Shown here: positions 4,867 to 24,622 of the stretch, piece by piece
Layout of the letters: each line of letters starts with the position of its first letter
Position numbering within the stretch: the stretch's first letter is position 1
Origin: a virus
Lineage: Duplodnaviria > Caudoviricetes
Reading direction: 5' to 3' (one strand)
Length of the DNA stretch: 24,622 bases
IMG/VR virus record: IMGVR_UViG_3300042997_001195
Coordinates: 1-24,622 of that record
The notes under the pieces: model-generated
What the model was told of the DNA's origin: nothing
Database searches by the model: none
What the model saw: only the letters and a program-made list of their open reading frames with translations
Position numbers and translations under genes: made by a program

Positions 4867-4874
4867 AACCACCG

Positions 4875-4883
4875 TGATACTGT
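4875..4883 (+). promoter_or_regulatory. Putative extended -10 (TGaTACTGT) for the methyltransferase gene
   Basis: TGnTAnnnT in the intergenic gap; GGAGAGG RBS before ATG 4914. Confidence 0.4.
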
Positions 4884-4913
4884 AGATCTTCGCGACAGCG
4901 GAGAGGAACGTAC

Positions 4914-7691: not shown

Positions 7692-7800
7692 TCGCTTCAT
7701 TTAATTGAGCGATAAGTGTGCGTGCAATCGCTAGTTGAAGTGCATACTGCTTGTTTTGCTCGAGTAAGTCTTCAATTACTGCTTGTGAGTTAACTTCCAT
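7636..7800 (-). CDS. Small coiled-coil protein with His/Asp tail (54 aa, below the ORF-track cutoff)
   Basis: Hand translation: MEVNSQAVIEDLLEQNKQYALQLAIARTLIAQLNEAIKSLSDHHHDHDHDDQQG*. AAGAAAG RBS-like sequence and a minus-strand TACAAT at 7832-7837. Confidence 0.65.
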   Translation of the reverse strand: MEVNSQAVIEDLLEQNKQYALQLAIARTLIAQLNEAIKSLSDHHHDHDHDDQQG

Positions 7801-9232: not shown

Positions 9233-10106
9233 TGTACTCCTCAAATGAAAAACCTGGAATTGACAATGTTATACCACTATTCTTTACTAGACGGACGAAG
9301 TCATTTCTAAGCGTTGGCATATACACGTTTGTTGCAGTTTTAGCCACGTCAGGGTCTTTGTTCGGATCAGTGACGCTTTCATTGACGGCAGTGTTTGGCG
9401 TGCCATGAGAGTACCAACCTAGATATGAGTAGCGCACTCCAGAACTGACTGGCTTAACCTCGTGTGTCGCCATGTAGTTTGATGGGAACATCAAGACATC
9501 TCCACGCTTAGGTTGAATTTCGATGTCTAAATAGTTGAAGTAGTGGTGTCCACCGCAAAAAGAAGTACTAGTGACTTGGTCGTCTGTGTCTACACAGTCG
9601 TTTAGATACATAAGCACGGTCGTTGTATTGCGCGTGGCTAGTTGATCGCCAGGCTCTGGTAAGCCATAGACATAGTCAGCACTTGTATCAGAATGCGCGC
9701 CAAGATACACACCACGCTTATATGAAACAACGTGTCCTTTGACTTTCCACCAAATGTTTTTATAGGCCATTGGAAATAAAGTTAAGTACTTTAAGAGGTA
9801 CTTATCTCGAGAGTCTTCAAGAAAATCTAAAAAGTCTTTGAACTCACCATCATTTGTTGTGTGTATTTGCGACGCGCGACGTGGCATTTGCTCAACAGTG
9901 TCAAGGTCAAAGTAGTATCCGCTTCTATTTAGAAAAGATTCTTTTCCAGTCTCTGGATTAATAGCTTTCGTGTACATGTGAGACTGCTCTGCTTGGAGTT
10001 CACGCTCAATCCAGTTGATTGCAATCTCGCAGTCCCAATCGAGCGCGCCTCTAAAGATGACGACACCGCCACCTAAGTGCTCTGGAGCTACGTCATTGAA
10101 CTTCAC
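9222..10106 (-). CDS. 2OG-Fe(II) oxygenase, prolyl-4-hydroxylase-like
   Basis: HSD...MYLND...GG...FPSN..THEV...GVRYS. Confidence 0.85.
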   Translation of the reverse strand: MKFNDVAPEHLGGGVVIFRGALDWDCEIAINWIERELQAEQSHMYTKAINPETGKESFLNRSGYYFDLDTVEQMPRRASQIHTTNDGEFKDFLDFLEDSRDKYLLKYLTLFPMAYKNIWWKVKGHVVSYKRGVYLGAHSDTSADYVYGLPEPGDQLATRNTTTVLMYLNDCVDTDDQVTSTSFCGGHHYFNYLDIEIQPKRGDVLMFPSNYMATHEVKPVSSGVRYSYLGWYSHGTPNTAVNESVTDPNKDPDVAKTATNVYMPTLRNDFVRLVKNSGITLSIPGFSFEEYNAD

Positions 10107-10960
10107 TTTACGTGATCCTTTTGTCTATTTGACACTGCAAGCAAGTGCGACGGTCTAGTGCTAGCGTCTGGGTATTTTTCAACAATGTATTGCTCGTAGT
10201 CTTCAATAATTGTCTTCATCCAATACTGACCGCCAATGACAAAAGAACTTTTTTCATGCTGGGGATTGACACCGCGCTTTTCGTCTTCTGATCCCTGGGC
10301 AAACCAACCAAGATACGAGTAACGTGTCCCGCGTGTTACTTCTAGGATTTCATGAGCGCCAATGTAGTTTGCTGGCATCATGCAGATATCCCCTGTGCGT
10401 GGCTTGATGTCGACATCAAAGTATGGAACTGTCATATGACCACCAGAAAAAGAGTACGGAGTTTCTTCTTCGCCTTCGTCGACACAGTCATTAAAGTAGA
10501 TAAGTGCGCTTAGCACATTACGTGTTGCATGTTCTGTCGGCGGAACAGCACCATAGCGGTAGTTGACATCGTTATCTGAGTGAAACCCAAGGGCACCGCC
10601 TTTATCGTAGGCCAAAATGTGACCTTCGCTTCTCCACCATAGCGACTGAAGAATGGCTGGAAACATCTCGATGTACCGCAGCAGCGCTGCGTACAGAGCT
10701 TTTTCACATTCGGCGAAGAATGGATGGTCCAAGTTCATCATTCTTACTGGTGCTTTACTTGTCTTTTCAAGATCGTAAATAAATCCGCCTTGATTGACTG
10801 CGTGAAGTGGCTTACCGTTTTCATCTTTGACGATAGTGAACATCTGGCTTCGAGCTTCTTCTTTAAGCTGCTCTAGGTGTGGAATGACTACGTGTTGTGG
10901 CACTTCGATTGCATTTCTAAACACGACTGTTCCGCCGCCTAAATGTTCAATGCTACTCAT
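10103..10960 (-). CDS. 2OG-Fe(II) oxygenase, prolyl-4-hydroxylase-like
   Basis: HSD...IYFND...GG...AHEI...GTRYS. Start placed at ATG 10960 (MSSIEHLGGG), matching the paralog N-termini and the promoter position. Confidence 0.85.
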   Translation of the reverse strand: MSSIEHLGGGTVVFRNAIEVPQHVVIPHLEQLKEEARSQMFTIVKDENGKPLHAVNQGGFIYDLEKTSKAPVRMMNLDHPFFAECEKALYAALLRYIEMFPAILQSLWWRSEGHILAYDKGGALGFHSDNDVNYRYGAVPPTEHATRNVLSALIYFNDCVDEGEEETPYSFSGGHMTVPYFDVDIKPRTGDICMMPANYIGAHEILEVTRGTRYSYLGWFAQGSEDEKRGVNPQHEKSSFVIGGQYWMKTIIEDYEQYIVEKYPDASTRPSHLLAVSNRQKDHVK

Positions 10961-10967
10961 ACATTTA

Positions 10968-11011
10968 ATAGTATCACTAGTCGCGCCTAAAAGTGTGAAG
11001 CTAGATAAGAT
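10968..11011. promoter_or_regulatory. Divergent leaderless-type promoter pair
   Basis: Minus-strand TGaTACTAT (10968-10976) is 7 nt before ATG 10960. Plus-strand TAAGAT (11006-11011) is 6 nt before ATG 11018. Confidence 0.5.
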
Positions 11012-11017
11012 ACTCAT

Positions 11018-11686
11018 ATGAAAGAACCAGCCTTTTGGGAAGACGTGATTGCTGATCTACCAGTGTGCATCGCTTTTAGAGAAAACTGGGAAAAGATTCT
11101 TGAAGAAGCTCATGAGTACCTTGCAATTAGTCCTGACTTTTTGATTTCGTACCCGGCTATAGAAGTAGACGATCTTGAAAAGCCAGGAGAAAAAACAAAA
11201 GTATATTGTGGAAATTCATGGAAAGTTGCTACTGCAGGAATAAAGACTGACGATGCTATGACTTCTCTTGGCGGTCCGTTTATTGCAAAATACGTCAAGA
11301 AGACCGTTGGGATAGAGCTAAGTGACATTGTCTTATCTGTAGCTTCTGTGCTTCCAACAATTCATAAAATCGCAAAACCGCTTGAAGATGCTGGGCACAT
11401 GTTTAATGGAGTGTTTAGCGTGGTCAGCCCAGGCACAGCGATCGCTCCGCACAGAGGCGACAGCAATCTAATGAGAGTTCATCTTGGTTTGGTGTGTGAT
11501 CCTTTATGCGAAATAACTGTAGGGCCAGACAAGCGGACTTGGAAAGAAGGAGAACTTCTAGCCTTTAAAGACGGAGGAGCTTATCCGCACAGTGTCACGC
11601 ACAACGGAACGCATGACAGGCTTATACTTATATTTGATCTAACACTCGACTATTTGCGGTCAGTGATAGATCACCCTATGCTGTAG
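11018..11686 (+). CDS. Aspartyl/asparaginyl beta-hydroxylase-family 2OG oxygenase
   Basis: FSVVSPGTAIAPHRG..NLMRVHLGL, RTWKEGELLAF, PHSVTHNG..DRLILIFD. Confidence 0.85.
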   Translation: MKEPAFWEDVIADLPVCIAFRENWEKILEEAHEYLAISPDFLISYPAIEVDDLEKPGEKTKVYCGNSWKVATAGIKTDDAMTSLGGPFIAKYVKKTVGIELSDIVLSVASVLPTIHKIAKPLEDAGHMFNGVFSVVSPGTAIAPHRGDSNLMRVHLGLVCDPLCEITVGPDKRTWKEGELLAFKDGGAYPHSVTHNGTHDRLILIFDLTLDYLRSVIDHPML

Positions 11687-12440
11687 CCGCGTTTTTAATA
11701 AAGACAGTGTATCCGTAAAACTCTGAAACATGGAATGTATGTCCATCGAGAGTTTTTAGAACCTCGTGCAGTCCCGTGTGCGGGTGAGAATGATACGAGT
11801 TTCTGTAGATACGTGTAGAGTCATTAGTAGACGCGATATGGAGAATTCCGCCAGGAGCCAGTGAATCCACATATTTTTTAAGAAGATCCGGCTCTCCTAA
11901 AACATCCCACACCATCAAGATAATCATGTCGAATTTTTCAGATTCTTCGATGCCGTTCTGTAGATCTTCGTAGTCAATGACGTCATAGTCGTCAATAGTG
12001 TACTGATCATGCACACCGTACATGTGCTGTTCAAAGGCATCTAAGAATGTATTGTTCATAAACGTGAGATGAGGCACAGCGGCCGGCTCGTTGTTTATCC
12101 ACGAGTACAGGCCTGCTGGAGTTCCAGGGACAGAGCTCAGTATTCTCTTTGGATTTTTTGCAAGCAAGAAAGACTCTACAGATGCGCTAACACGCTTGAG
12201 CAAAGAAAACCACTCGTTTTCTGCGTCCTTGAAAAGATCATATAGAAAAATCTCTCCATTGCCTCCACCGCCGACAGCGACAATTCTTTTGTCAACGCTA
12301 TAAGCGGCTCTTTCATTTAAGATAGCTGTCGCGGCTTCACTTTGCGTCTGGCTAAAGTCATCTCCAAATGTTCCATTGTCCAGCATTGTAGAAGACAGAA
12401 ACTCCGACACCAAAGACATTCTTAAAATTGTATTATCCAC
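11676..12440 (-). CDS. Class I SAM-methyltransferase-fold protein, degenerate
   Basis: NPKRIL, EKFDMIIL, LKKYVDSLAPGGILHI; no canonical GxGxG at motif I. GTG 12440 follows AAGGAG. Confidence 0.55.
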   Translation of the reverse strand: MDNTILRMSLVSEFLSSTMLDNGTFGDDFSQTQSEAATAILNERAAYSVDKRIVAVGGGGNGEIFLYDLFKDAENEWFSLLKRVSASVESFLLAKNPKRILSSVPGTPAGLYSWINNEPAAVPHLTFMNNTFLDAFEQHMYGVHDQYTIDDYDVIDYEDLQNGIEESEKFDMIILMVWDVLGEPDLLKKYVDSLAPGGILHIASTNDSTRIYRNSYHSHPHTGLHEVLKTLDGHTFHVSEFYGYTVFIKNAATA

Positions 12441-12741
12441 GAGCAATAACTCCTTTAATGACTTGGCGATGCCACCAGTATCTGCGAGCTGAAGTGACAA
12501 GATGATAGTTTTCAGTTCTTAAAAAGTCGATTGCAGAATGAGAACGAGATACTCCTGACGGAGAAGAGTAGTGGAAGTTGTTTCTTAAGCCGGTAACTAT
12601 GTCGTCTATTGTAATTAGATCTAAGTTGTCTTCTGTAATTCCCGCTAAGATACAAATAACAGTAAGCTTATAGTCTACTCTTTCTAGGTCATTTTGCGGA
12701 TTGTAAAGAGCCGCTCCCGTTTGAGATCTAGTTCTCTTCAT
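12433..12741 (-). CDS. Hypothetical protein (small paralog group)
   Basis: Overlaps its neighbours; contains LERVDYKLTVICILAGITEDNLD. Confidence 0.65.
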   Translation of the reverse strand: MKRTRSQTGAALYNPQNDLERVDYKLTVICILAGITEDNLDLITIDDIVTGLRNNFHYSSPSGVSRSHSAIDFLRTENYHLVTSARRYWWHRQVIKGVIARG

Positions 12742-13024
12742 AGATTTTATCCTCTGGCATGTCTATTTCTGGGGTAACAGTCCACGGCTCAGAAGGATCT
12801 CCACTCTGCAGTAGCTCGCAAAAAAACGCAGCGCCGTCTGCAAGCTGAAAAGAAAACTGGTTCGGAACCCAGTGTATAACCTGATCGTTTCTTGACGGGT
12901 TGTGGATTGGCTCACTAATGTGAGGGTAGGCAGGATCTTCGTCCGGGCATATTTTATATTTTCCAGTTGAAATTGCAGATTCAATAATTGGCAACTTTAG
13001 TGGAATCTTCGGCTTTATATCCAC
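12728..13024 (-). CDS. Hypothetical Pro-rich acidic protein
   Basis: Tightly packed in the operon; no recognisable motif. Confidence 0.6.
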   Translation of the reverse strand: MDIKPKIPLKLPIIESAISTGKYKICPDEDPAYPHISEPIHNPSRNDQVIHWVPNQFSFQLADGAAFFCELLQSGDPSEPWTVTPEIDMPEDKIYEEN

Positions 13025-13027
13025 GGT

Positions 13028-13258
13028 TTACACCGCACTTACACGCGAGTGTGCAATCACTTGAAGTCGTAGGCATTCATACGCGTTCCAGATGTCAGAA
13101 CTGTTGTCTTCTGGTACCGGATTCTCCCATTCGGCGTCGAGTTCGTCGACGTCTACGCCTAAGAGAGTCGCAATACTGTAAATTGAGTACTCTAGGTACT
13201 CAATCGCGCTTGCATTTGCTTTCGCTTTTAATTCGTCTGAAAGTGTTGTAAATGTCAC
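13028..13258 (-). CDS. Hypothetical acidic protein (small paralog group)
   Basis: GTGA coupling; contains IEYLEYSIYSIATLLGVDVDELD. Confidence 0.65.
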   Translation of the reverse strand: MTFTTLSDELKAKANASAIEYLEYSIYSIATLLGVDVDELDAEWENPVPEDNSSDIWNAYECLRLQVIAHSRVSAV

Positions 13259-13500
13259 AGCGATTCCATTTTGGTCTTAATTTTAGCAATAGCATCAAGA
13301 GTAATCACAATCTCTAAATCACCTTGACGAATAACGCCAGGGGTATGCCCGTCGCGGGGTTCGAAGGTGGTCTCGTCAAACGTGTCTGGGTCAAAGCCTT
13401 CCATAACCAATAAGTTAATGAGGCGGCGCTCGCTATTTTGAAGACTACGAGCGTACAATGCTCGCTGCTCTCCTTCTGTCATTTTAGTTGTAAAGTCCAT
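13255..13500 (-). CDS. Hypothetical protein (small paralog group)
   Basis: AGAGGA RBS; contains LQNSERRLINLLVMEGFDPDTFD. Confidence 0.7.
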   Translation of the reverse strand: MDFTTKMTEGEQRALYARSLQNSERRLINLLVMEGFDPDTFDETTFEPRDGHTPGVIRQGDLEIVITLDAIAKIKTKMESL

Positions 13501-13579: not shown

Positions 13580-14281
13580 TTATACCTCTGGGGCACTTAG
13601 CTTTATTGGCCCGGTGTATTGAGGGCCAATTCGTACGCCATCTGCGTCTAAACCTGTCTTGATTCCTTTAGTCCATGTCCATGGATTTTCAACATTATTC
13701 TTCATTTTGACATCGCTGTACTTCACGCGCGACTTAATCAGTTCCGGGTTGTCCCACAAATTCGACACTTCAAATTCAACGGACGGCATAGTGTCTTCTT
13801 TGTAGATCGAAAAGAAGCAAAATGGTGACCCTGCTGGGAAAGTAACTGGTTCGCCTACTTTAGTGATTTTCCAGTTCATTTGTACTTCATCTGGCCACCA
13901 AGAACTGGGAATGGCAGCGGCAAGTGGAACAGCGCCATCGATGAAATAATTAGGGGACCCGGTGAGCCACGTTGCGTAGCCTTCTTCAGTATTGACTGTC
14001 CATCCCATCCCGATTGAAATGATTCCAATAATGGATGGAAACGCTACTTGACGTCCATTTTGTTCTCCTCCGCTAATTACAGTAACGGGGTTATTTCCGC
14101 CGTCCCACTGGACAACTAGATCTTCTTCAAGAACAAGTTCCCACCCCATAACATTAGCAGCAGTCATCGGCAGGCACTGATACGCGTGCTTGTTGTGCGT
14201 ATCGTCCATCCAATCGCGCTTAATGCGAGACTGCTCAATACGTGGAGCAGTCTGATGGTTTCTCGTAAGGCGCACTTTCAT
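13580..14281 (-). CDS. DUF6065-family protein
   Basis: RDWMD...HAYQCLPMTAANVMGWEL, GSPN, PL...W, MNWKIT, F.AG.PFC. Confidence 0.75.
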   Translation of the reverse strand: MKVRLTRNHQTAPRIEQSRIKRDWMDDTHNKHAYQCLPMTAANVMGWELVLEEDLVVQWDGGNNPVTVISGGEQNGRQVAFPSIIGIISIGMGWTVNTEEGYATWLTGSPNYFIDGAVPLAAAIPSSWWPDEVQMNWKITKVGEPVTFPAGSPFCFFSIYKEDTMPSVEFEVSNLWDNPELIKSRVKYSDVKMKNNVENPWTWTKGIKTGLDADGVRIGPQYTGPIKLSAPEV

Positions 14282-14997
14282 CAGGCTAAGAACCTTCCGT
14301 CAACGCTTTGCTGACTACCGTGCACTGGAAGTCCAGCACCTTCTGTTGCTTTAGTGCCATCAATGTTTTCTCCATAGCCTTGCTTGTGTGTTCTATCATT
14401 GTAGTCAAACATAGTCACAGCTGCGTACTTGACCCCGCTTGTCACTGCCTTTGACGCGTGGGCGTAGATGTATGTAGAAGGGAAAAATATTATGTCCCCG
14501 TATGACGGCTTAAATGCCACATCAATAAACGGAAACCACAATTCACCTCCTTCATAGTCATCGTTCAGATACATTACAGATGACACAGTGCAGTTGTATG
14601 AAAACCCGTGGTCAGTGTGCAGACCAAAGTGCTGCCCTGTCCCGTACCGCACGTAGTTTATTGCTTCCATAAAATCCATACGAATGTTGTATCGAGACTC
14701 ATAGTCGCGGAGGCACTCTGTTAAGCGTGCCACCGTGTCGTTATAGATATTCTTCATTTCAGAAAACTGTGGAGGAAGGTGCTGAATGTGGGTAGGACCC
14801 ATTTTGCAGTCGACACAGTCGCGGTACTCCGGCATTTTCTGCGCGTCGCCTACAAGTGCGTCCATCCACATGAACGGCGCCATCGTGCTAGTTCCAATGG
14901 TCTCTTCAAGACGCTCAATTAGGCGTAATTCTTTTGGTAGTGCATTTCTGTAGACAATAAGACCAAATTTAGGATCACCGATGTATTCGTGTTGCAT
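14281..14997 (-). CDS. 2OG-Fe(II) oxygenase, prolyl-4-hydroxylase-like
   Basis: HTD...MYLNDDYEGGELWF...FPS..YAH...GVKY. Confidence 0.9.
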   Translation of the reverse strand: MQHEYIGDPKFGLIVYRNALPKELRLIERLEETIGTSTMAPFMWMDALVGDAQKMPEYRDCVDCKMGPTHIQHLPPQFSEMKNIYNDTVARLTECLRDYESRYNIRMDFMEAINYVRYGTGQHFGLHTDHGFSYNCTVSSVMYLNDDYEGGELWFPFIDVAFKPSYGDIIFFPSTYIYAHASKAVTSGVKYAAVTMFDYNDRTHKQGYGENIDGTKATEGAGLPVHGSQQSVDGRFLA

Positions 14998-15659
14998 TAT
15001 TTATTTTCTCCGTTTACAGCTTCAGCAAGCTTAAACACTTGCAGAAATACGTCAATTATTGTTGCGTCCGACAAGAACAAAGAATACGTGTATTTATTGC
15101 CACTAATAATTTCTGCGACTTCGTGCGGATACAGAATTGTGGCTGGAAAAAGTATAAGCGTACCTGGAGCAGGTTTTGTTTTGTAGTCTTGTTTTGGGAA
15201 CCACAGCTCACCGCCTTCATAGTCGTCGTTGAGGTATACAACTGAAGAGTACAAGATCACTGGCGGCGGAGCCGCTATACCGCTACCAAGAAACTGGCTA
15301 ACGTCTATAGAACCGTCTCGTGGCGATGCCGCGGAGTCAGAGTGCCTTTCAAGTGAATCACCAATTTCCCAGCGGTTAAATCTGCCAGTGTCATCGTAGC
15401 GCTGGATGTTTGCGCCAAACTGATAACTAGCTATGTTTTCTATCGCAGTAATTACGCTCTCTAGCTCAATGAAGTCAGCGATGGGATCGGGATTAGCGTA
15501 CGAAGCAGGGGTGCTGGGGTGCCAGTCGTCTTCTCTAAGTACTGTGCGAATCCTATTTACTTCACTGGGCGTAAGAAAATCTTTTACAACAATGATGTTT
15601 CTATCAGAACCACCACGTTTCATATTTTCAATAGTAGTCAGCTGCTTTTGCTTGTCCAT
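14997..15659 (-). CDS. 2OG-Fe(II) oxygenase, prolyl-4-hydroxylase-like
   Basis: HSD...VYLNDDYEGGELWF...PHEV...GNKY. Confidence 0.9.
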   Translation of the reverse strand: MDKQKQLTTIENMKRGGSDRNIIVVKDFLTPSEVNRIRTVLREDDWHPSTPASYANPDPIADFIELESVITAIENIASYQFGANIQRYDDTGRFNRWEIGDSLERHSDSAASPRDGSIDVSQFLGSGIAAPPPVILYSSVVYLNDDYEGGELWFPKQDYKTKPAPGTLILFPATILYPHEVAEIISGNKYTYSLFLSDATIIDVFLQVFKLAEAVNGENK

Positions 15660-16377
15660 GACTGTCTTTCGTATCTTGGTTCTTTATCATTCTAAACATA
15701 TCTAAGTACACTTCTGACAGATTGATGCTAGATAAAAAGAAATTGTGCGTGTAGCGGTGACCACTAAGCACTTTTTTTACTTCATGCAGGTACATACAAT
15801 TGCCAGGAAACATGATCAGCGTGCCTGGTTTTGGCTTTATTTCTATACCATGCAGTGGAAAACATAGTTCTCCACCTTCATAGTCGTCATTGAGGTAGAT
15901 AAGTGCTGAGTACATAATAAGAAAAGGTGGGAGATCGTGCCCAGCGTAGCTGTGCAGTACAGTAGTGCACGATTCGTTTTCAGAGTCGGCGTGCAGTTTT
16001 AGCGAGTCGCCAGTGTCCCATCGGTTAATGCTTCCTAAATTTACAGACTCCGTAGTAGAACCGTACACGCATAGTCTAGCGCCATATGTGCGACTTGCTA
16101 AATCTACAGCCCGTGCCACCTGGTCTTTTGCACAGCGCATAAATCTTTTGTCCATTTGGCCGTAATTTGTGACCGCATCATTAGAAAATTTTCCTCTACT
16201 CCACGAAACAACGCTGACTAGATCCATCCATTCTTCTACTTTTTCTTGGGAAATAAAATCTTCTACGATAATAATGTTATTCGCAGAGCCTGGCACTAGA
16301 TTCTGCGCTTCTAAATTTCCGCGTCCGAGTGGCGTTTCTTTTTTTGTACGTCTATTGTACTGAATTTCGTGCACCAT
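15628..16377 (-). CDS. 2OG-Fe(II) oxygenase, prolyl-4-hydroxylase-like
   Basis: HAD...IYLNDDYEGGELCF...LHEV...GHRY. Confidence 0.9.
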   Translation of the reverse strand: MVHEIQYNRRTKKETPLGRGNLEAQNLVPGSANNIIIVEDFISQEKVEEWMDLVSVVSWSRGKFSNDAVTNYGQMDKRFMRCAKDQVARAVDLASRTYGARLCVYGSTTESVNLGSINRWDTGDSLKLHADSENESCTTVLHSYAGHDLPPFLIMYSALIYLNDDYEGGELCFPLHGIEIKPKPGTLIMFPGNCMYLHEVKKVLSGHRYTHNFFLSSINLSEVYLDMFRMIKNQDTKDSHGQAKAADYY

Positions 16378-16382
16378 GTGCG

Positions 16383-16982
16383 CTACCTGACAATGCTAAA
16401 GAATAACGGAGACGACCAGCGCGCTCCTTTTTCAATTGTATCAACGTAGTGAAGATGCGTTGCACCGCCTGGAAATATAGCTACTTTTCCTGCAGTAGGA
16501 GAAATGCGCACGGTATGCTGAGGAAACACTAAATCACCTCCTCTAAAATCTTCATTATGGTACATAACGGCCGAAATGTCGTAGTCCTCCATTCCAAGTT
16601 TTGGAGTGCCGTCTATGTTTTCTTTATCAGCGTGCACTTGCTTAACTTTTGAGTGCTCGTCGAGCCGCACTAAAGACGGTTCTCTAAAAATAAGACTACA
16701 TTCAAATAGTTTTTCTGCCTCATGCATTACGCGCCTTGCGCAGGCTTCAAGAGCTAAATACGAGATTGGGCTGATGTCGAACAGAATGTCAGCACCGCAA
16801 GTTGTCTCTATCCATGCATCAGCGTCATAGAGCACATTTCCTTTGTCGTCAAATCGTGTCACTGGGTCATAGTTCCAAAGGTTTATCATTGACGCAAGCT
16901 GCATTATTGAAGACAGCTCATCTAATGTCACAAGCCCATCTACTTCGTAGATATTTACGTTGTGCCTTGTTATGTTCATCAT
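16383..16982 (-). CDS. 2OG-Fe(II) oxygenase, prolyl-4-hydroxylase-like
   Basis: HAD...MYHNEDFRGGDLVF...LHYV...GARW. Confidence 0.88.
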   Translation of the reverse strand: MMNITRHNVNIYEVDGLVTLDELSSIMQLASMINLWNYDPVTRFDDKGNVLYDADAWIETTCGADILFDISPISYLALEACARRVMHEAEKLFECSLIFREPSLVRLDEHSKVKQVHADKENIDGTPKLGMEDYDISAVMYHNEDFRGGDLVFPQHTVRISPTAGKVAIFPGGATHLHYVDTIEKGARWSSPLFFSIVR

Positions 16983-16987
16983 TTTAT

Positions 16988-17686
16988 TTACTGAAAATAC
17001 GCAAGCATAGATTTTGGCATGTTCTGGCGTGTAAATACTCCAGACGAATTCATCGATTGCTGCTCGTCGCGATCGATGATTACCATGTCTGAACGGTCTT
17101 GCACAAATGTCTTCCAGATGTACTTTAGCTTTGGAGTAGTAAAAAACGTCATCAACGCGTATCTATTGCCAAAAGTAACTTCTTTAACTCCGTGTACATA
17201 ATGCTGTGTTCCAGGAAAAAATATGAGTTCTCCCGGGCTTGGCTTTATTTCTAGATCTAAATCTGGAAAATAGATCTCACCGCCTTCATAGTCGTCATTG
17301 AGGTAAGTCAGCGCCGCGTATTCTATAAAGATCGATGAAAAATTGTTTAGCGGTGTCATTACAGTATTTCCAGTTTCTGGATCGTCAAAAAAGATTGACT
17401 CACAGTCGGAATGCGGATCTTGCTTTTCTCCAGGATACCAATTGCGCAGTGCCGTGCCACAGGTATCTACAACGTCTAGCCCGAAGACATCAGTGACTTC
17501 TTTAGCTACTTTCTTAGTATACGCTTTTGTCCAATCAGCAATTTCTGTATTGTAGTCAGCTTGTACTATTGCTCTTGATGTGCTCTGCTGCAATACGTTG
17601 TCTTTTGCACTGTACTCAAGCACGGCCTTGACATCAGCAGCATTTAAGAAATTTGGAACTCTATGGACGTTACCTATCTGCGGCAT
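16988..17686 (-). CDS. 2OG-Fe(II) oxygenase, prolyl-4-hydroxylase-like
   Basis: HSD...TYLNDDYEGGEIYF...VHGV...GNRY. Confidence 0.9.
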   Translation of the reverse strand: MPQIGNVHRVPNFLNAADVKAVLEYSAKDNVLQQSTSRAIVQADYNTEIADWTKAYTKKVAKEVTDVFGLDVVDTCGTALRNWYPGEKQDPHSDCESIFFDDPETGNTVMTPLNNFSSIFIEYAALTYLNDDYEGGEIYFPDLDLEIKPSPGELIFFPGTQHYVHGVKEVTFGNRYALMTFFTTPKLKYIWKTFVQDRSDMVIIDRDEQQSMNSSGVFTRQNMPKSMLAYFQ

Positions 17687-18459
17687 TACTCATGAACATA
17701 ATCGTAGTCGTAGTTGCCTCGCGCGCCGCGAGGCATATGTGTGTCGACATTCCACTCTGCTGGAAATTTTTCTTTTTGTTCATCTGTCAGCGCGGAGTAC
17801 ATATTGTATGCGTTGCTATGTAGTTCAATCAGCTTTGGTCTTGCTAAGTGAGTGATGATATTCCAACGTGGACTGCCACTTTCTATAGCATGCACCCCAT
17901 GCATGTACTCATGCGAGCCGGGGAACCACACAAGCTGGCCCGGCACATGTTCGATTGTGATTCCGTACTGTTCAAAGTACAACTGGCCGCCTACAAAATC
18001 GTTATTGACGTAAATGTTTGCTGACATGTCAATTAAATTAGGCTCATAGACATGCAGCGGTGAGTATTCTGGCAAGAACGCTGTCCCAGTTGGGCCTATT
18101 CCTTCTGAATCAGTGTGTCCGGGGCAAAAACCGCCTACAGCAGTTTCCATTCTACAAAAGTCAAAGATAGGAACGAGCTGGTGCCCCGCTTCGTAGCTAA
18201 TCATTTGTTTCAACTTGATCATGTATTTTTTGAGTAGAGGGTGAAAGTTAGGGTTACCCCACTCGCGGCGAACAGTCGCGCATTGTTCTTTATATGTGCC
18301 AAGCGCGGCGTTGATATAGTCTTCCGTTGGCACACTCTTTTCGTTCCACCATTTGTCGTCTGACTTGTTTCTGCAGAGATCGTCAAGCACTGCAAGATCT
18401 TGTGGTTCTATGAAGTCATTAAATACTCTAATGTGGCTTGGGCTTGCTGGAGTGTTCAT
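17686..18459 (-). CDS. 2OG-Fe(II) oxygenase, prolyl-4-hydroxylase-like
   Basis: HTD...IYVNNDFVGGQLYF...MHGV...PRW. ATG 18459 (MNTPASP) lies just after the upstream stop. Confidence 0.88.
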   Translation of the reverse strand: MNTPASPSHIRVFNDFIEPQDLAVLDDLCRNKSDDKWWNEKSVPTEDYINAALGTYKEQCATVRREWGNPNFHPLLKKYMIKLKQMISYEAGHQLVPIFDFCRMETAVGGFCPGHTDSEGIGPTGTAFLPEYSPLHVYEPNLIDMSANIYVNNDFVGGQLYFEQYGITIEHVPGQLVWFPGSHEYMHGVHAIESGSPRWNIITHLARPKLIELHSNAYNMYSALTDEQKEKFPAEWNVDTHMPRGARGNYDYDYVHE

Positions 18460-18469
18460 GTATTTCTTT

Positions 18470-19108
18470 CTAATTAAACGATGCAACTGTGTAAAACGAA
18501 GGAGTTGTGTATCTGTACCCACTCGTGACCATAGTTACTCCATGCAAATAATTTATATCACCCGGATGTAAGACAGCCAGACCTGGTTGCGGTCTAATTA
18601 CAACATCATGGTCTGGATAGAAAAGATCTCCGCCCTCAAAGTCATCATTGTAGTAAAACAATGAGTTGAGGTCATAGCTTGGAAACGCATTTGGCTGGCC
18701 GTCATTGAGCTGTTTGTCTGCGTGCGGGCGCTGTTCAGTTCCAGGACGCCATTTCATAATCACTGGCGGACGCTTACTAACCTTACAATTAAACTGGTCT
18801 TCGATTACGCGCTGCATCTTGTCAATATATTTGTCAATAATGTGCCACACCTGCGGATTGATTCTTTCAAGAATATCAGTACTGCATTGGCGATCATTCC
18901 AATAGTCGGCGTTATACAGGCAAGTACCGTCTTCGGCAAAGACAGATTCTTTTTCGTTGTTCCACTCCGAAATAGTTGGGCAAAACTCTTGAATTATTTT
19001 AAGATCATCTAAGTCAATGAAATTATCAATAGTGACAATGTTGTCACGCGAGTTACCAAAATACCCAGGCGCGACATCCCATGGAGTATTACTAGAGTTG
19101 CTTAGCAT
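18470..19108 (-). CDS. 2OG-Fe(II) oxygenase, prolyl-4-hydroxylase-like
   Basis: HAD...YYNDDFEGGDLFY...LHGV...GYRY. Confidence 0.9.
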   Translation of the reverse strand: MLSNSSNTPWDVAPGYFGNSRDNIVTIDNFIDLDDLKIIQEFCPTISEWNNEKESVFAEDGTCLYNADYWNDRQCSTDILERINPQVWHIIDKYIDKMQRVIEDQFNCKVSKRPPVIMKWRPGTEQRPHADKQLNDGQPNAFPSYDLNSLFYYNDDFEGGDLFYPDHDVVIRPQPGLAVLHPGDINYLHGVTMVTSGYRYTTPSFYTVASFN

Positions 19109-19865
19109 TTTTGTTTTCTTTCATCTTTATGTACTGGTAGATTTCTTCGTCCACTTGAGTCTTTTCTTTTATCTTCTTAAGCTGACTATCTGTAAGGTCG
19201 AATTGAATAGGTTGAGAAGTGTTTACTTTAGCCGCATTTGAGCTAAGTTTGACGCCGAACTGCTTTAGCATGAAGACGTTTACTTTGCTAATGACTTGAT
19301 CTCGGCAGGCGAGTGTTCCAACAATATGGTTGTCAACAAAGTCTTTGACTTCGTCTACGTCTAGTTCTTTGTCTTCGAAAACACTGCGCGTAGCGTCAGC
19401 GTACGGATCGTACACTTCTACGAATCTAGACACCATAAATCTTGATTGCGTATTCGACGCACCATTAAACAGTGGCTCGTGAACATCCAAATTATAAAAG
19501 TAATTATTGATGTGCTTGTCGACAAGCTCCCGCGTTGGGACGACGCCATCGCGTAAACACCGATAAGTAATGGTGCTTAAGTATTGGGAAACAGGCTCCC
19601 GCACTAACGCAAACACAACAGGATTGTCGAAATCTTGCACCGGATTAGCAGCGAAATGCCCGCTAAAAAAATTATAATTTTCTAGTTCTGAAACTGGAGG
19701 AAGAATAAACTCGTACTCTCCTGGAACATACACTTGAAGTTTGGCAAAGCCACGTTGATCACTTGCGCGTTGAGCACAAACGGCTTCTACTTTTTCAAGC
19801 TCTCTAAGAATTTCAGTCCCAGATGTCCTCGGTATATGTAGGTGATATATCGGTCTGATTTTCAT
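19092..19865 (-). CDS. PAPS-dependent sulfotransferase-fold protein (Sulfotransfer_2-like)
   Basis: 5'-PSB loop HLHIPRTSGT, SGHF, 3'-PB motif LVREPVSQYLS, N.Q.RF and terminal D..IY. Confidence 0.75.
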   Translation of the reverse strand: MKIRPIYHLHIPRTSGTEILRELEKVEAVCAQRASDQRGFAKLQVYVPGEYEFILPPVSELENYNFFSGHFAANPVQDFDNPVVFALVREPVSQYLSTITYRCLRDGVVPTRELVDKHINNYFYNLDVHEPLFNGASNTQSRFMVSRFVEVYDPYADATRSVFEDKELDVDEVKDFVDNHIVGTLACRDQVISKVNVFMLKQFGVKLSSNAAKVNTSQPIQFDLTDSQLKKIKEKTQVDEEIYQYIKMKENKNAKQL

Positions 19866-20445
19866 AGCGCTCTTCTGTCATTCTAACCAGCATTTTATGT
19901 TTCACGGGGATCCAGAAGTGAGGAGACGTAAACCGCACTCCGGACGTAATTGGTAGCACTTCATGTATATAGTACGTGCTCGATGGAAAGAATATAAAAG
20001 TACCAGCGGCTGGTTTATACGTAATGTCATAGGCTGGAAATCTAATTTCTCCGCCTTCATAATCGTCATTGAGATACATTATTGATCCGTAATCGTCCAT
20101 ATAGGTTTCAGTTGGGACGCCGTCAAACGTTTCTCCATCAGCATGCGGCTCTTGCAAGTCGCCTACGTCCCAACGCCGTATTCCAGGTACTGCTGGATCG
20201 ACTTTTCTACCAAACTTATACTCTATAAGCATTTGAGCTTTTTCTAAATACTCAACCATAATGGCGTACAGGTGCGGATTAGCTATTTCCATTACAGTTG
20301 CTGGACTAATTTTGTCTGTGCCTGCAATAGACTTTGGCGACCAGTCTTTTATAGTCTTGCAATACTCGTGAGCTAGCTTTAAGTGCTCTACCGATACAAA
20401 ATTCTCTAAGACTACGATATTGCTTGGATCAGCAGTTTCGTACAT
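19813..20445 (-). CDS. 2OG-Fe(II) oxygenase, prolyl-4-hydroxylase-like
   Basis: HAD...MYLNDDYEGGEIRF...IHEV...GVRF. Confidence 0.9.
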   Translation of the reverse strand: MYETADPSNIVVLENFVSVEHLKLAHEYCKTIKDWSPKSIAGTDKISPATVMEIANPHLYAIMVEYLEKAQMLIEYKFGRKVDPAVPGIRRWDVGDLQEPHADGETFDGVPTETYMDDYGSIMYLNDDYEGGEIRFPAYDITYKPAAGTFIFFPSSTYYIHEVLPITSGVRFTSPHFWIPVKHKMLVRMTEERYENQTDISPTYTEDIWD

Positions 20446-20450
20446 TAAAC

Positions 20451-21743
20451 TTACTTAAATCCGGGCGGGAAGAATGGAGGAAAGTACGGTGGGAAGTACG
20501 GAGGAAAGTATGGGGGGAAATAAGGAGGAAAGTACGGTGGGAAGTACGGAGGAAAGTATGGGGGGAAATAAGGAGGAAAGTACGGAGGAGCAACAGGAGT
20601 GGCATTACCTGTCTGGAAAGTTAAGCTACTGCCATAGGCGTTTACAGCAACACCTTGGGCAAAGTACTCAGTGCCATTTGTCAAACCAGTGACAGTGACC
20701 GGTGAGGCAGCGTTGCCACTGCTAGTACTAATAAGAGCGCTGTCACTGGTTCTATATATGCGAATAGTATATGTCTGTGCTCCGGTTCCACCGCTAGGAT
20801 ACACTAGCGCAAAAGTAACTGTTACTTGAGCGTTACCTGCAGCGATACTGAAATCATTCCACGATGCGCTGGGCGCTCCCGGCCTGTAACCGTTTGCTAC
20901 TGCCGCAGACGGAGTAGATGCTGGCGACGTACCGTAGGCGTTTGTCGCTGTAGCCGTAAATGTTCGCGCGGTGCCCCGAGGATTCAACGCCCAGAACGAA
21001 TAGTTTGGAGTGGCGCTGCCTGTACTGATAGTTTCACCAGTAGAAGCGGTAAAAGTGAAGTTTGTGTTTGCCCCCGTTCCAAGAGTCAAACTTCCTACAC
21101 CGACACTGTATGTGCCACCCACGCTATCGTTTGAAGCAGTAAGACTCGTTAGGTTTGATGGCCTGTTACCGGCGGTCACAGAGTTAGATGCGGCTGATGT
21201 AGCGCTGCCGTATATTGTAGACGCGGTAACTGTAAACGTGTATGCAGTGCCTGCTGTAAGACCAGAGACGCGAACAGGACTTGATCCGGTTGCTGTAATC
21301 CCGCCAGGTGAAGACGTAACTGTGTATGTTACAGAGCCAGAGGTTCCTGTAGATCCTGCAGTGTATGGGACGTCGATATTTCTATCAACGTTTTGCACGA
21401 TGACTGCCGTGCCGATTGTTGGCGCAGACGGACCTACGCCCATAACAAGCGATGCGCTTGGGGACGATGATGAAGACTCGACACCGTTGACTGACACGGC
21501 TTTGATAGTAAAAGTAACTGTTGAGCCTGCCGTAAGACCAGTAACTTCAATAGGGCTTGAAGATCCAGTTCCAGTTTGACCAGAGCTTGCAGTTATTGTG
21601 TAAGAGATCGTGCCTTTACCGGTATATGTTGACGGAGTAAAAGCTACTGAAGCGACAGTGCTCGATACCCAAGTTGGCGTACCAATTACAGGTGCAGTCG
21701 GCTGTTTGCCGCCACTCTCTTGATCACCTGACATCATGCTCAT
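20451..21743 (-). CDS. Probable virion surface protein: four fibronectin type III modules plus C-terminal (PPYF)n tail
   Basis: Four P-x-A/N-P/L...T..F...A.(N/S)..G modules (e.g. GLTAGTAYTFTVTA, GLTNGTEYFAQGVAVNAYG). Ser/Thr/Gly/Ala rich. ATGA-coupled to the fibre gene. Confidence 0.8.
   Translation of the reverse strand: MSMMSGDQESGGKQPTAPVIGTPTWVSSTVASVAFTPSTYTGKGTISYTITASSGQTGTGSSSPIEVTGLTAGSTVTFTIKAVSVNGVESSSSSPSASLVMGVGPSAPTIGTAVIVQNVDRNIDVPYTAGSTGTSGSVTYTVTSSPGGITATGSSPVRVSGLTAGTAYTFTVTASTIYGSATSAASNSVTAGNRPSNLTSLTASNDSVGGTYSVGVGSLTLGTGANTNFTFTASTGETISTGSATPNYSFWALNPRGTARTFTATATNAYGTSPASTPSAAVANGYRPGAPSASWNDFSIAAGNAQVTVTFALVYPSGGTGAQTYTIRIYRTSDSALISTSSGNAASPVTVTGLTNGTEYFAQGVAVNAYGSSLTFQTGNATPVAPPYFPPYFPPYFPPYFPPYFPPYFPPYFPPYFPPYFPPFFPPGFK
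20454..20588 (-). repeat. Coding tandem repeat: 9x PPYF + PPFF + PPGFK (12-bp units; exact 48-bp duplication 20481-20528 = 20529-20576)
   Basis: Counted codon by codon from the sequence. Confidence 0.95.
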
Positions 21744-24622
21744 ACTGAAAGGTCTCCTACTGCTACCCAGGTATCTGTTGCTCGTTTAATCAATGTTGCA
21801 GATGCCCACTGAGTTCTAAGCTTAAGACCTGGCGTACCATTTATCGTAACACCCGCGCCTGGAGTAAGTGTGCACTGGCCAGTGTTTGTTTGAAGAACTC
21901 TAATTTGCGTTCCAACTGGAAATGCCACTGACGAGTCTGGCGGAACTGTTAGAGTGTTCCCAGAACCAACACTCATTTCAACTAGCTTATTCTTATCCGC
22001 CAAGACCAGCGTGTAGCTTGCCGTCTGCGCATTAGTTGAAATATCAGCCAGTTTGCCAAGGTCAATTGCAGCAGTTGTTGAAATGTCGGCGTCAACAATT
22101 GTGGCGTCGGCAATCATTGTGCTGGTAATAGTCCCAGTCGGCGCACTAAATGTTCCAGTGAACGAAGCGTTATTGATCGGTGCGGCATCTGTGATGCCGT
22201 ATCCAGAAAGCGTAGTTGGATTTGTTCCAGCAGTTACTCTGCCGTAGGTATCAACTGTTACTGACTGGTAGGTGCCGATTGCCGCAATACCAGAAGCAAG
22301 GTCAATGTTGTCCGCGTTGACAACAATTCTTCCAGTCGATGCAGTACCGACACTGAACGTGTTGTCTGTTAAGACAAGACCATCGCCGCCCAGGTATGTA
22401 CCAGCGCCAGAGAATTGAAAAACATCAATGTCATCTGTTCCAACAACAAACGTTGGTGGGTCTGCAACTACTTGTATCCACCCGGTTCCAGCAAGCGTTC
22501 CGTCTTGGACAAAAATATATGCGCCAGGAATTTCACTAGCTTCGTCGCAATAGCCGCATCGTGTCAGTACATACGGAGTAGACACGGAGCCCATGTCTGA
22601 TACGAAGTATCGACCGTTTTCTTCTTTGTTTGTCTGGTTCTTTACTAAGATGCCTTTGAATTGCGCCCAGCCGCTTGCTCCGCCAAAATCGGATGGAAAT
22701 ACGCCGTTCGAATTAGCAGTTAAAGTCGCGCCGACACCAAGTGTGCCATTGCTGTACGTTGCGTCAATATTTGTAGTTGTTGCTGCAAGAACAGATGGCT
22801 TTGCAACGACTCCAGCGGCCGTATTATCTACATACTGCTTTGTTGCAGCGTGCAGTGCCGATGACGGATCAGCAGCAAGTGTGACTGTTCCAGTAAATGT
22901 TGGGTTTGCAATTGGTGCCTTCGTATCAATCTGTGTTTGAATCGCAGACGTAACTCCATCTACGTAGTTAAGTTCTGTCGTCGATAGCGTTGCACCATCA
23001 AGAATGTTGAGCTCAGTCGCTGTTGCCGTAAGAGCTACGTTTTCATTGATGTTTGGCGATGTAAGAGTTTTATTTGTGAGAGTCTGGGCATCGCTTGTAC
23101 CGACAATAGCTCCAGACACGCCGTGAGTTGTTGTTAATGCCGCGTGAGTCGATACGTAACCTGAAGCTGTAGATTCTGCATTAGTTTGCGCAGTCGCTGC
23201 TGCGCCATACGCATCATATGTGTTGGCGGTTACTGAAATTGCGCCCGTTGAGTCTGTGTATGTAAGACCAGTTCCCACTGCGTTGCCAACAGCGTCTTGA
23301 GCGCGCTCATCTGTGAAGTACTGATTAGTTCCTTCTTCAATTGCAGTCGTTGTGATTGCGTCTACAGCAGAAGTAATGTCTGACGTAAGAGCGACTGTGC
23401 CTGTTGCGTCGGGCAGTGTAATTGTGCGGTCCGCCGTAGGATCAACAACTGTAACGGTGGTCTCAAAATCGTTGGCAGTCGTGCCTTCAAAGATGACACC
23501 AGAACCGTCGACATTTGGCGATGTAAGAGTTTTATTTGTGAGAGTCTGGGCATCGCTTGTACCGACAATAGCTCCAGACACGCCGTGAGTTGTTGTTAAT
23601 GCCGCGTGAGTCGATACGTAACCTGAAGCTGTAGATTCTGCATTAGTTTGCGCAGTCGCTGCTGCGCCATACGCATCATATGTGTTGGCGGTTACTGCCA
23701 CAGTTGGGCTTGCGCCTTCACCACTGTTGCCGCTTAATGTGATGCCAGTGCCTGCGGTAAGACTTTCTACATAGCTACCAGACGTATCAGTACCAAGAGT
23801 AATTGCAGTATCTGCGGTTACAGCGCCAGTTACTCGGCCATACGAGTCAGTTGTGAATGATTGAATGAATGACTTGCCAGCAGAACCGCTTGTGTTTGTG
23901 CGGGTGACAGTTGCAAGGTCAATGTCGTCTGAGTTTACAACAATACGCGCCGCGTTCGCTGTTTGCACATTTACAACGTTTCCAGTTGTGGCAAGACCTG
24001 CTCCTGCGGTAAACGTAGCTGTACCAGTGAATTGCCCAAAAGTAATGTCATCAGTGCCAATGACATACGTTCCATTTGTCCCGGTCCCGGTTGACAGTGT
24101 AATAAATCCTTGGTTAGAACTAGACGAGCCAGCAGTGACGTACACTGCATTTCCGCTTGCGCCAAGATTTTCGAACGATGGGCTTGCATCAAAGTCTGTT
24201 GCTCTTGTAAGAACATACGGAGCGCTTACGCTGCCTTGAGCTGTTACTACATACACGCCGTTTTGTTTTGCATCGGCTTGATCTTTGACAAGAACTCTGT
24301 CATTTGTTGTTGCGTTAGCGCCGTCAATAATCAATCGTGCATCTGATGTTGCAGTAAGTGTCGCTCCAACTCCCGATGTCCCGTTATCATATGTGGGCGT
24401 CCCTGGAAGAGCTGCGGCTGTTCCGAGTTTCACAGCATCGTGCCAGACAACTCCTGCAGCATAATAGTCTACATATGCTTTAGTTGCTGCGTGATTGACG
24501 TCTGTTGGAGCAGAACTAATCGTGACGTTAGCAAATGTTGGTGAAGCAGACGTTGCAACGCTTTGCCCAATCGCAACTGTAGGAGATGATCCTTCGCCTG
24601 GAGTGTGAGTTACAGTTACGCC
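21740..24622 (-). CDS. Long tail-fibre-like structural protein, 5'-truncated by the window edge
   Basis: The frame is open to the window end (...HAATKAYVD...). Repeated HAATKxYVD, LVKxQ...NGxYxV, TLTNKTLTSP, TxDxYGRVT modules. T/G/A/S rich, ending ATLIKRATDTWVAVGDL. Confidence 0.8.
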   Translation of the reverse strand, partial: GVTVTHTPGEGSSPTVAIGQSVATSASPTFANVTISSAPTDVNHAATKAYVDYYAAGVVWHDAVKLGTAAALPGTPTYDNGTSGVGATLTATSDARLIIDGANATTNDRVLVKDQADAKQNGVYVVTAQGSVSAPYVLTRATDFDASPSFENLGASGNAVYVTAGSSSSNQGFITLSTGTGTNGTYVIGTDDITFGQFTGTATFTAGAGLATTGNVVNVQTANAARIVVNSDDIDLATVTRTNTSGSAGKSFIQSFTTDSYGRVTGAVTADTAITLGTDTSGSYVESLTAGTGITLSGNSGEGASPTVAVTANTYDAYGAAATAQTNAESTASGYVSTHAALTTTHGVSGAIVGTSDAQTLTNKTLTSPNVDGSGVIFEGTTANDFETTVTVVDPTADRTITLPDATGTVALTSDITSAVDAITTTAIEEGTNQYFTDERAQDAVGNAVGTGLTYTDSTGAISVTANTYDAYGAAATAQTNAESTASGYVSTHAALTTTHGVSGAIVGTSDAQTLTNKTLTSPNINENVALTATATELNILDGATLSTTELNYVDGVTSAIQTQIDTKAPIANPTFTGTVTLAADPSSALHAATKQYVDNTAAGVVAKPSVLAATTTNIDATYSNGTLGVGATLTANSNGVFPSDFGGASGWAQFKGILVKNQTNKEENGRYFVSDMGSVSTPYVLTRCGYCDEASEIPGAYIFVQDGTLAGTGWIQVVADPPTFVVGTDDIDVFQFSGAGTYLGGDGLVLTDNTFSVGTASTGRIVVNADNIDLASGIAAIGTYQSVTVDTYGRVTAGTNPTTLSGYGITDAAPINNASFTGTFSAPTGTITSTMIADATIVDADISTTAAIDLGKLADISTNAQTASYTLVLADKNKLVEMSVGSGNTLTVPPDSSVAFPVGTQIRVLQTNTGQCTLTPGAGVTINGTPGLKLRTQWASATLIKRATDTWVAVGDLSV
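23052..23235. repeat. 184-bp exact direct repeat, copy 1
   Basis: Identical to 23514-23697; offset 462 bp, in frame. Confidence 0.92.
23514..23697. repeat. 184-bp exact direct repeat, copy 2
   Basis: Identical to 23052-23235. Confidence 0.92.

Follow-up and report, generated by a model that had tools for sequence, protein, structure and literature searches.

A candidate phage cassette for prolyl hydroxylation of an x-Pro-x-Phe repeat encoded in the tail-fiber block

The window analyzed here is the whole of IMG/VR record IMGVR_UViG_3300042997_001195, a 24.6-kb (24,622-nt) stretch of Caudoviricetes DNA whose estimated completeness of 16% implies a phage of roughly 150 kb. Behind a tail-fiber-like gene it encodes a protein, hereafter the carrier, that ends in a Pro/aromatic repeat and is followed by a run of genes for 2-oxoglutarate (2OG)-Fe(II) oxygenases, a sulfotransferase-like protein, and DUF6065. 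From sequence comparisons and structural models, we consider it probable that the repeat, the oxygenase that we call OG0, and DUF6065 constitute a phage prolyl-hydroxylation cassette acting on a protein of the tail-fiber block. We propose that the cassette is mobile, such that an x-Pro-x-Phe repeat on a tail-fiber-block protein would travel with OG0 and DUF6065; OG0 likely hydroxylates the repeat prolines, probably during particle assembly, and the modified filament is presumably displayed on the virion, where the product may tune host attachment or shield the particle. OG0 would read a Pro that precedes x-Phe and itself follows Pro, Gly, or Ala, a paralog (OG0b, absent from the window) would handle the Phe-Pro-x-Phe context, and DUF6065 would be not a dUTPase but a helper, as adaptor or chaperone; the remaining oxygenases, the sulfotransferase, and a methyltransferase-like protein would be optional decorators of the tail or of other fiber proteins. 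The central features are the following:

20451-21743, minus strand: carrier, 430 aa, four FN3-like repeats and a C-terminal repeat tail
20454-20588, minus strand: (PPYF)9-PPFF-PPGFK tail, proposed substrate
14281-14997, minus strand: OG0, core oxygenase resembling collagen prolyl 4-hydroxylase (P4H), proposed tail-modifying enzyme; H127, D129, H180; Y118, S139, K190; F124
13580-14281, minus strand: DUF6065, core gene, trimeric-dUTPase-like fold, putative helper; invariant R22, W24, M25, Y34, C36, P38

The repeat tail and its carrier

The tail comprises 45 residues (22 Pro, 9 Tyr, 12 Phe) in nine PPYF units followed by PPFF and PPGFK, and terminates a protein with four FN3-like repeats (residues 14-101, 105-192, 195-284, and 301-376), which confirms the tail and the four-FN3 layout that an original prediction made from the letters of this DNA had described. 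In the repeat codons the first two positions are fixed and the third varies synonymously, which identifies this strand and frame as the coding ones. The Pfam fn3 model matches the carrier with E = 2.9e-10, with two stretches passing; only its place behind the tail-fiber-like gene marks the carrier as a putative virion protein.

Across 68 tails, the repeats contain 1826 Pro, 1743 Phe, 160 Tyr, and 42 His residues, the family consensus unit is PPFF, and 22 tails are free of Tyr. The window tail is the richest in Tyr of 72 clusters (0.88 per unit), and no other of these clusters has as many oxygenases from tail to DUF6065; 42 of the 72 share the C-terminal FK ending. The carriers form 19 clusters at 30% identity that include FN3 and PASTA types and long fiber proteins. 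In some relatives the repeat is topped by S74, Hint-like domains (below cut-off), or Cys-rich peptides (L034, L067, L007, and others), hinting at self-cleavage or further modified tips. Repeat frames without an ATG, GTG, or TTG start that would give a 60-aa open reading frame (ORF) occur in L002, L017, L047, L051, and L072; carriers in such frames may start late or at a different codon, or may be read by frameshifting.

Linkage of the repeat to DUF6065 and oxygenase genes

A pattern of three PP[YF]F units is present in an estimated 1,100 viral stretches and in only 16 stretches from 185,579 prokaryote genomes, and five of these prokaryote contigs, in which a true repeat lies beside oxygenases, look like mis-binned phage DNA. 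A search of 50,697 phage records (isolates) returned no DUF6065 match. Before counting, we removed 12 of the 80 tail loci, in which a start-codon ORF was missing (11 held genuine repeat frames and one was a chance match), as well as 41 loci with short flanks and loci with too little room; an unpublished genome (G440) was also set aside and underlies none of the conclusions. The forward set consists of the 53 tail loci for which 5 kb or more of downstream sequence is available. DUF6065 lies within 10 kb of the tail in 38/53 of these loci, at least two oxygenases are found in 35/53, and for terminal tails DUF6065 lies within 10 kb in 26/27. Searches of whole records located DUF6065 in 14/33, and in 11/14 of those at least half complete. 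In the reverse direction, for which 52 viral and 80 metagenome DUF6065 loci were examined, a repeat is encoded upstream on the same strand in 27/27 viral and 31/31 metagenome loci with room.

Twenty-one long sister-phage records related by terminase served as a control for kinship. Five hold the repeat, DUF6065, and 6-8 oxygenases together, and 16 hold neither repeat nor DUF6065 and 0-2 oxygenases; of the six records with a completeness of 90% or more, both are present in two and neither in four. The terminase of one phage with the repeat is just 23% identical to those of the others, indicating that the cassette crosses lineages. In a group of ~110-kb phages considered below, a terminase was found in 0/5, and their kinship to the others was judged by estimated size alone. 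The forward, reverse, and sister-phage counts support the substrate-plus-tailoring arrangement first proposed for the window and withstand the co-occurrence check that the original prediction had set as its own refutation, and the linkage likewise supports its likeness to systems for peptides that are made on the ribosome and modified after translation (RiPPs), in that a ribosomal precursor is co-encoded with tailoring enzymes.

OG0 and a minimal three-gene core

Clustering of 674 oxygenases identifies only two near-constant families, OG0 (49/53 loci) and OG1 (52/53 loci). OG0 normally lies directly before DUF6065 and is located between tail and DUF6065 in 66/72 clusters. A scan driven by OG0 recovered the strict repeat in 22/26 loci with room; the four exceptions encode an FN3 protein with degenerate GPSF/PPPF-like units and an FK end, whose gene lies 30 bp ahead of OG0 and DUF6065; OG1 is missing there, and given that the four are close kin they count as one event. 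In one of these records, with a completeness of 94%, PF13640 is represented by a single gene, and a TauD-family gene lies nearby. These loci point to x-Pro-x-Phe as the probable conserved unit and to tail, OG0, and DUF6065 as the probable minimal set.

The model of OG0 (predicted local distance difference test [pLDDT] 88) has as its top Foldseek match 3gze, an algal P4H with (Ser-Pro)5 (E = 6e-11), and among the matches listed 37/39 are named prolyl hydroxylases; the best PDB sequence matches of OG0 are to a bacterial P4H. The iron triad of the double-stranded β-helix fold (His-x-Asp...His; H127, D129, H180) is invariant in 57/57, as are Y118 (His-9), S139, and K190 (distal His+10). In the accessible text on collagen P4H (PMC9676403), the corresponding spacings are Tyr421/His430 and His501/Lys511, with Thr467 in the cofactor set; Y118, S139, and K190 of OG0 pair with Tyr421, Thr467, and Lys511, respectively, the S139-Thr467 pairing being by motif spacing only. 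OG0 is thus predicted from fold and cofactor site to work like a P4H; we do not class it as a member of that family because an invariant Phe124 occupies the His-3 position at which P4Hs carry the substrate-contacting Tyr140/427. The label "P4H-like" had originally been given to all eight oxygenases of the run. It stands in the strict sense for OG0 and falls for the other seven, which lack the collagen-P4H pair: their His-9 residues are W, W, T, W, D, W, and W, and the cofactor residue is Arg in six and Lys in one.

Co-variation of a second OG0 with tail spacing

Some tails of the ~110-kb phages combine PPFF with three-residue PFF units. A second OG0, which forms its own clade (OG0b, support 0.998), is present in 12/12 loci with at least two three-residue units and in none of the other 104 loci. 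The prediction that OG0b goes with this spacing was set down and then tested on fresh scans. Among 63 fresh loci chosen by OG0 similarity, 57 have both the unit and OG0b, none has the unit alone, five have OG0b alone, and one has neither; the mixed pattern served to select another 66 new loci, and OG0b is present in all 55 of these with any cassette gene in view. Phe-Pro-x-Phe is absent from all 10 OG0b-less loci examined, and five changes in OG0b state are placed on the OG0 tree. The window, with a tail that has no Phe-Pro-x-Phe unit and a single OG0, fits this pattern. We regard the co-variation of OG0b with tail spacing as the best sign from sequence that OG0-type enzymes would read the tail.

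DUF6065

The DUF6065 gene of the window matches its Pfam family with E = 7e-43. Its model (pLDDT 94.6) matches trimeric dUTPases in Foldseek (E = 1e-5), and structural comparison with dUTPases (VIA) gives Z of about 10 and a root-mean-square deviation of 2.6-5.7 over 114-129 residues; sequence identity to dUTPases is 10-19%, and no dUTPase Pfam family matches. Trimeric dUTPases have five catalytic motifs, which include the motif-III Asp. This Asp was not seen in the DUF6065 consensus, judged by eye, and the invariant residues of DUF6065, which bacterial copies share, cluster at R22-W47.

DUF6065 is above cut-off in 23/401 sampled bacterial genomes. In 13 of 20 bacterial loci (L314-L328) it adjoins a gene for a tRNA-editing domain, which we take to be of the ProX type; all 13 belong to one clade and therefore represent one event. 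A general role as polyproline partner in bacteria was considered and set aside as a weak lead: plasmids were promising, with DUF6065 following, after 9 bp, an autotransporter that has 29 Pro within a 30-residue stretch in a Sinorhizobium plasmid and lying behind a collagen-like gene in an Ochrobactrum plasmid (a Niveispirillum plasmid has neither), but the 20 genome loci gave only two cases, one directly after a collagen-like gene and one more ~3 kb from a polyproline gene. In L284 (6403-9684), L286 (7214-9762), and L332 (5965-8366), DUF6065 lies right behind a polyproline autotransporter or collagen-like protein and oxygenases are absent. Literature searches returned no description of DUF6065; a role as a proline-tract helper is plausible.

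Other genes of the cassette and accessory enzymes

The remaining genes of the cassette and its surroundings are listed here.

21740-24622, minus strand: tail-fiber-like protein, 5' end cut by the window end; PHROG 8745 tail fiber, E = 6e-60; 4-bp overlap with the FN3 (carrier) gene
19813-20445, minus strand: 2OG-Fe(II) oxygenase, OG1-type, accessory; Trp at His-9, Arg as cofactor residue
19092-19865, minus strand: sulfotransferase-like protein, Sulfotransfer_2-type, accessory
18470-19108, minus strand: 2OG-Fe(II) oxygenase, OG1 core member; fine family in 44/44 clusters of the window's group
17686-18522, minus strand: 2OG-Fe(II) oxygenase, rare family; 2/44 clusters, both Tyr-rich close kin
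16988-17686, minus strand: 2OG-Fe(II) oxygenase, rare family; 2/44 clusters
16383-16982, minus strand: 2OG-Fe(II) oxygenase, OG1-related local copy
15628-16377, minus strand: 2OG-Fe(II) oxygenase, OG1-related local copy
14997-15659, minus strand: 2OG-Fe(II) oxygenase, OG1-related local copy; has Lys at His+10, yet Trp at His-9
12433-13500, minus strand: four small genes recurrent with the cassette (81, 76, 98, and 102 aa)
11676-12500, minus strand: methyltransferase-like protein (weak); sub-threshold methyltransferase matches only
11018-11686, plus strand: Asp/Asn β-hydroxylase-family (AspH) oxygenase, accessory; PF05118, E = 3e-22; 4/44 clusters
8468-11017, minus strand: second block, three PF13640 oxygenases (10103-11017, 9222-10106, 8468-9244)
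7852-8454, minus strand: glutathione-peroxidase-like (GSHPx-like) protein; PF00255, E = 3e-12

Gap measurements and family matches confirm the co-oriented run that the original prediction placed 5 bp after the carrier stop (eight oxygenases, the sulfotransferase-like gene, and DUF6065). The spacings down these ten genes are 5, -53, -17, -53, -1, 5, 5, -32, -1, and -1 bp, the long overlaps probably reflecting ORF starts called too far upstream. All eight oxygenases match PF13640 (E from 1e-3 to 1e-11, two of them under the curated cut-off) and 8/8 retain the HxD motif. The cassette likely extends beyond DUF6065 to about position 7852, as the methyltransferase-like gene is present in 126/203 DUF6065 loci, the GSHPx-like gene in 146/203, and the four small genes in 39-100 of the 203; the small genes are found in 0/5 stretches from repeat-less sister phages. 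Pfam annotation of the window cassette includes no protease and no exporter.

The sulfotransferase-like gene has no Pfam or NCBIfam match and is placed by the ESM Atlas with Sulfotransfer_2 clusters (score 0.96, with the family on 34-46% of members). It is present in 7/53 loci and 15/72 clusters, and its occurrence is not associated with the share of Tyr in the tail (15 vs 57 clusters, p = 0.78). We rejected an identity as tyrosylprotein sulfotransferase, given that the nearest family is Sulfotransfer_2 and its occurrence is independent of Tyr. The share of Tyr correlates weakly with oxygenase count (rho 0.30, p = 0.012, with kin that are not independent), and the L454 tail, equally rich in Tyr (0.84), has only three oxygenases between itself and DUF6065, with no sulfotransferase. 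Where tails bear His, the family to which gene 10103-11017 belongs is absent (present in 0/6 vs 35/38 clusters), an association that comes from one of 64 tests and 2-3 lineages and that we treat as a lead only; the tails in which His replaces Tyr and this family is missing are those of L356, L461, L464, L465, L476, and L486.

Comparison across clusters indicates that the eight-enzyme battery and the Tyr richness of the window are local elaborations. The battery had been presented as a feature of the system, a view that gives way to one of local expansion, a single PF13640-family oxygenase being sufficient in the minimal cassette. The Tyr-centered maturation envisaged at the outset, with 3,4-dihydroxyphenylalanine (DOPA), sulfated Tyr, and a cross-linked adhesive, likewise does not hold up against the 1743 Phe versus 160 Tyr residues, the Tyr-free tails, and the independence of the sulfotransferase.

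Fiber region of repeat-less sister phages

Repeat-less sisters carry other cassettes in their fiber region; in three of four, a protein that is Gly-rich or collagen-like is accompanied there by a different oxygenase and a gene of the Trp-halogenase type. This alternative cassette, seen in L278 (6815-13304) and also in L275 and L279, adds a small gene and possibly a dUTPase-fold gene; DUF6065 aligns to a gene of the repeat-less sister phages with an hhalign probability of 22%, a weak match. At 4867-7729 of L275, an FN3 protein with a Cys-rich C-terminal peptide is followed by a weak sulfotransferase match and an APS kinase domain, which may be another candidate tailoring set.

Setting of the cassette in the window

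At lower coordinates than the cassette, on the plus strand, are two further assigned genes:

7155-7691, plus strand: WhiB with a Cys-rich C-terminal extension
6218-6721, plus strand: pyrimidine-dimer glycosylase-like gene

The WhiB gene suggests an actinobacterial host. A 54-aa ORF with a His/Asp-rich end stretch (7636-7800, minus strand) overlaps the end of the WhiB gene on the opposite strand. The block at 3-6155 (plus strand) encodes an APH-type kinase, a HAD hydrolase, a nucleotidyltransferase, a dimeric-dUTPase-like protein, a C5 methylase-like protein, and two unassigned genes, and resembles a gene set for modifying nucleotides or DNA. Promoter and terminator scans gave counts at chance level (23 vs 25.7 and 17 vs 14.6).

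Alternative explanations

Several observations weigh against a dedicated prolyl-hydroxylation cassette. Internal repeats on long fiber proteins have DUF6065 nearby in only 12/26 loci, and 3/14 records at least 50% complete have no Pfam DUF6065 match (one of these being a chance match). Four of the five positive sister records were preselected through DUF6065, so that G038 is the single unbiased positive, and linkage of this kind can arise by co-inheritance of an island. To the substitution at Phe124 of OG0 are added an identity to known P4Hs of only 15-20%, at a template-modeling (TM) score of about 0.55-0.6, and the scores of PiuC-type and lysyl hydroxylases, which are near those of its P4H matches. 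Tail length shows no relation to oxygenase number (rho -0.01), and an oxygenase neighbors bacterial DUF6065 in 0/20 loci. As to OG0b, 4/5 of the loci with OG0b alone hold Phe-Pro-x-Phe only when the motif is taken in a form refined after the test, L639 has OG0b without Phe-Pro-x-Phe and stays discordant, and the contig end truncates 3/10 of the tails from loci lacking OG0b; within its group OG0b is present almost everywhere, such that the informative events are four separate losses plus the basal branches, only one loss (L654) is new to the test, and the OG0b gene physically adjoins the tail gene.

Co-inheritance could extend to the whole system, in which case the repeat would be an unmodified hydrophobic filament, DUF6065 perhaps its chaperone, and the oxygenases would act on small molecules, lipids, or host proteins. 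The accessory genes, which include AspH (the window gene at 11018-11686, with weak likeness to LpxO/OlsC) and, in relatives, PhyH, a desaturase, and TauD, are in keeping with such an island, as are the cyanophage oxygenase homologs in the 50,697 phage records devoid of DUF6065 matches and the other enzyme cassettes in the fiber region of repeat-less sisters. We nevertheless judge the island unlikely as an account of the system, since it leaves unexplained why OG0 is kept while carriers and other oxygenases swap and why OG0b is linked to tail spacing; for most accessory enzymes alone it may still hold. It is also improbable, in our estimation, that the repeat is the substrate of a chemistry directed mainly at aromatics (e.g., β-hydroxylation of Phe, Tyr, or His) and not at 4-hydroxyproline. 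The constancy of Phe at unit position 4, which equals that of Pro, the invariant Phe of OG0 in place of P4H Tyr140, and the missing 10103-11017 family in loci with His-bearing tails would suit aromatic chemistry; the closest folds of OG0 are peptidyl-prolyl hydroxylases, the collagen-P4H Lys/Tyr cofactor pair is present, and the link to His amounts to 2-3 events.

We give little credence to a mussel- or extensin-like adhesive built on Tyr through DOPA, Tyr sulfate, and cross-links: the window combines the Tyr-richest tail with the most oxygenases and Tyr share and oxygenase count correlate weakly, but the PPFF consensus, the Tyr-free tails, the distribution of the sulfotransferase, and the L454 counterexample all argue otherwise. 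A role in nucleotide or translation chemistry, in which the dUTPase-fold protein would act on nucleotides or Pro-tRNA supply and so help translation of the repeat, is very unlikely as well. The fold of DUF6065, its tRNA-editing-domain neighbor in bacteria, and the nucleotide-modification-like block at 3-6155 would agree with such a role; against it stand the low identity to dUTPases, the motif-III Asp missing by eye, and the single clade behind the tRNA-editing loci. The 11 PF13640-matching oxygenases of the window have no Pfam match to TET/JBP or AlkB families, only to PF13640 (one also to PF13759) at E<=0.01, and no TET/JBP or AlkB fold is among the listed fold matches of OG0, to which the fold comparison was confined. 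Within the prolyl-hydroxylation reading that we favor, a bolder version is tentative and in our view rather doubtful: a modular xPxF tailoring code with one oxygenase per context (OG0, OG0b, and others for Tyr or His), a dUTPase-fold adaptor, and a portable polymer that could be grafted onto any fiber protein. Were it true, abundant aquatic phages would be diversifying a hydroxylated polymer on their surface, a material of extensin or collagen type that viruses invented.

Significance and comparison with known systems

When phages carry 2OG oxygenases in tandem, these are usually regarded as auxiliary metabolic genes. The cassette points to a defined candidate peptide, one core enzyme, and a proposed rule of sequence context. 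If the proposed reading is right, hydroxylation would join the few known self-modifications of phage particles, DUF6065 would gain its first role, and small prolyl hydroxylases that can be expressed in prokaryotes and have unusual Pro-aromatic specificity would become available. Literature searches, whose scope excluded subscription papers and the supplements of PMC2938197, returned no description of the repeat or the cassette.

The O-glycosylation of mycobacteriophage virions (Freeman et al. 2023, as cited in the accessible part of PMC11652166) resembles the cassette in that enzymes of actinobacterial phages modify their own particle proteins; it differs in that glycosyltransferases acting on capsid or tail have been shown experimentally, whereas here oxygenases would act on a dedicated repeat. 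The portion of Iyer et al. 2010 (PMC2938197) on which we draw predicts bacterial operons in which a β-hydroxylase or PhyH enzyme and a sulfotransferase accompany a collagen-like or tail-collar substrate. The phage cassette is similar in that a co-encoded repetitive or fiber protein would be hydroxylated and then sulfated, and is dissimilar in its xPxF polymer, its PF13640 OG0 core, its optional sulfotransferase, and its being phage-borne; both are predictions. The same portion reads cyanophage oxygenase arrays as secondary-metabolite pathways. The array of Synechococcus phage Syn9 is like that of the window in having many non-identical 2OG oxygenases in tandem and unlike it in being ascribed to secondary metabolites, with no repeat substrate named in that text (PMC2938197).

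Closer in fold is vCPH, the viral collagen prolyl hydroxylase of chlorovirus PBCV-1 (PDB 5c5t), which ranks seventh among the fold matches of OG0. It shares with OG0 the status of a viral enzyme with a P4H fold, and is distinct in belonging to a eukaryotic virus, in being a single enzyme, and in having no known substrate-enzyme cassette or DUF6065. vCPH reportedly hydroxylates the Pro-rich peptides of its own virus.

The nearest parallels are Cr-P4H-1 with (Ser-Pro)5 (3gze) and, as far as the accessible text of PMC9676403 covers it, collagen P4H. OG0 differs from them in its 17% identity, the Phe in place of the substrate Tyr140/427, the location of its gene in a phage beside the proposed substrate, the alternation of Pro and aromatic pairs in that substrate, and the DUF6065 partner. 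It is like them in fold, in the HxD...H triad, in the Tyr at His-9, and in the Lys at His+10, and the substrate of the algal P4H is a Pro-rich repeat, as we propose for OG0.

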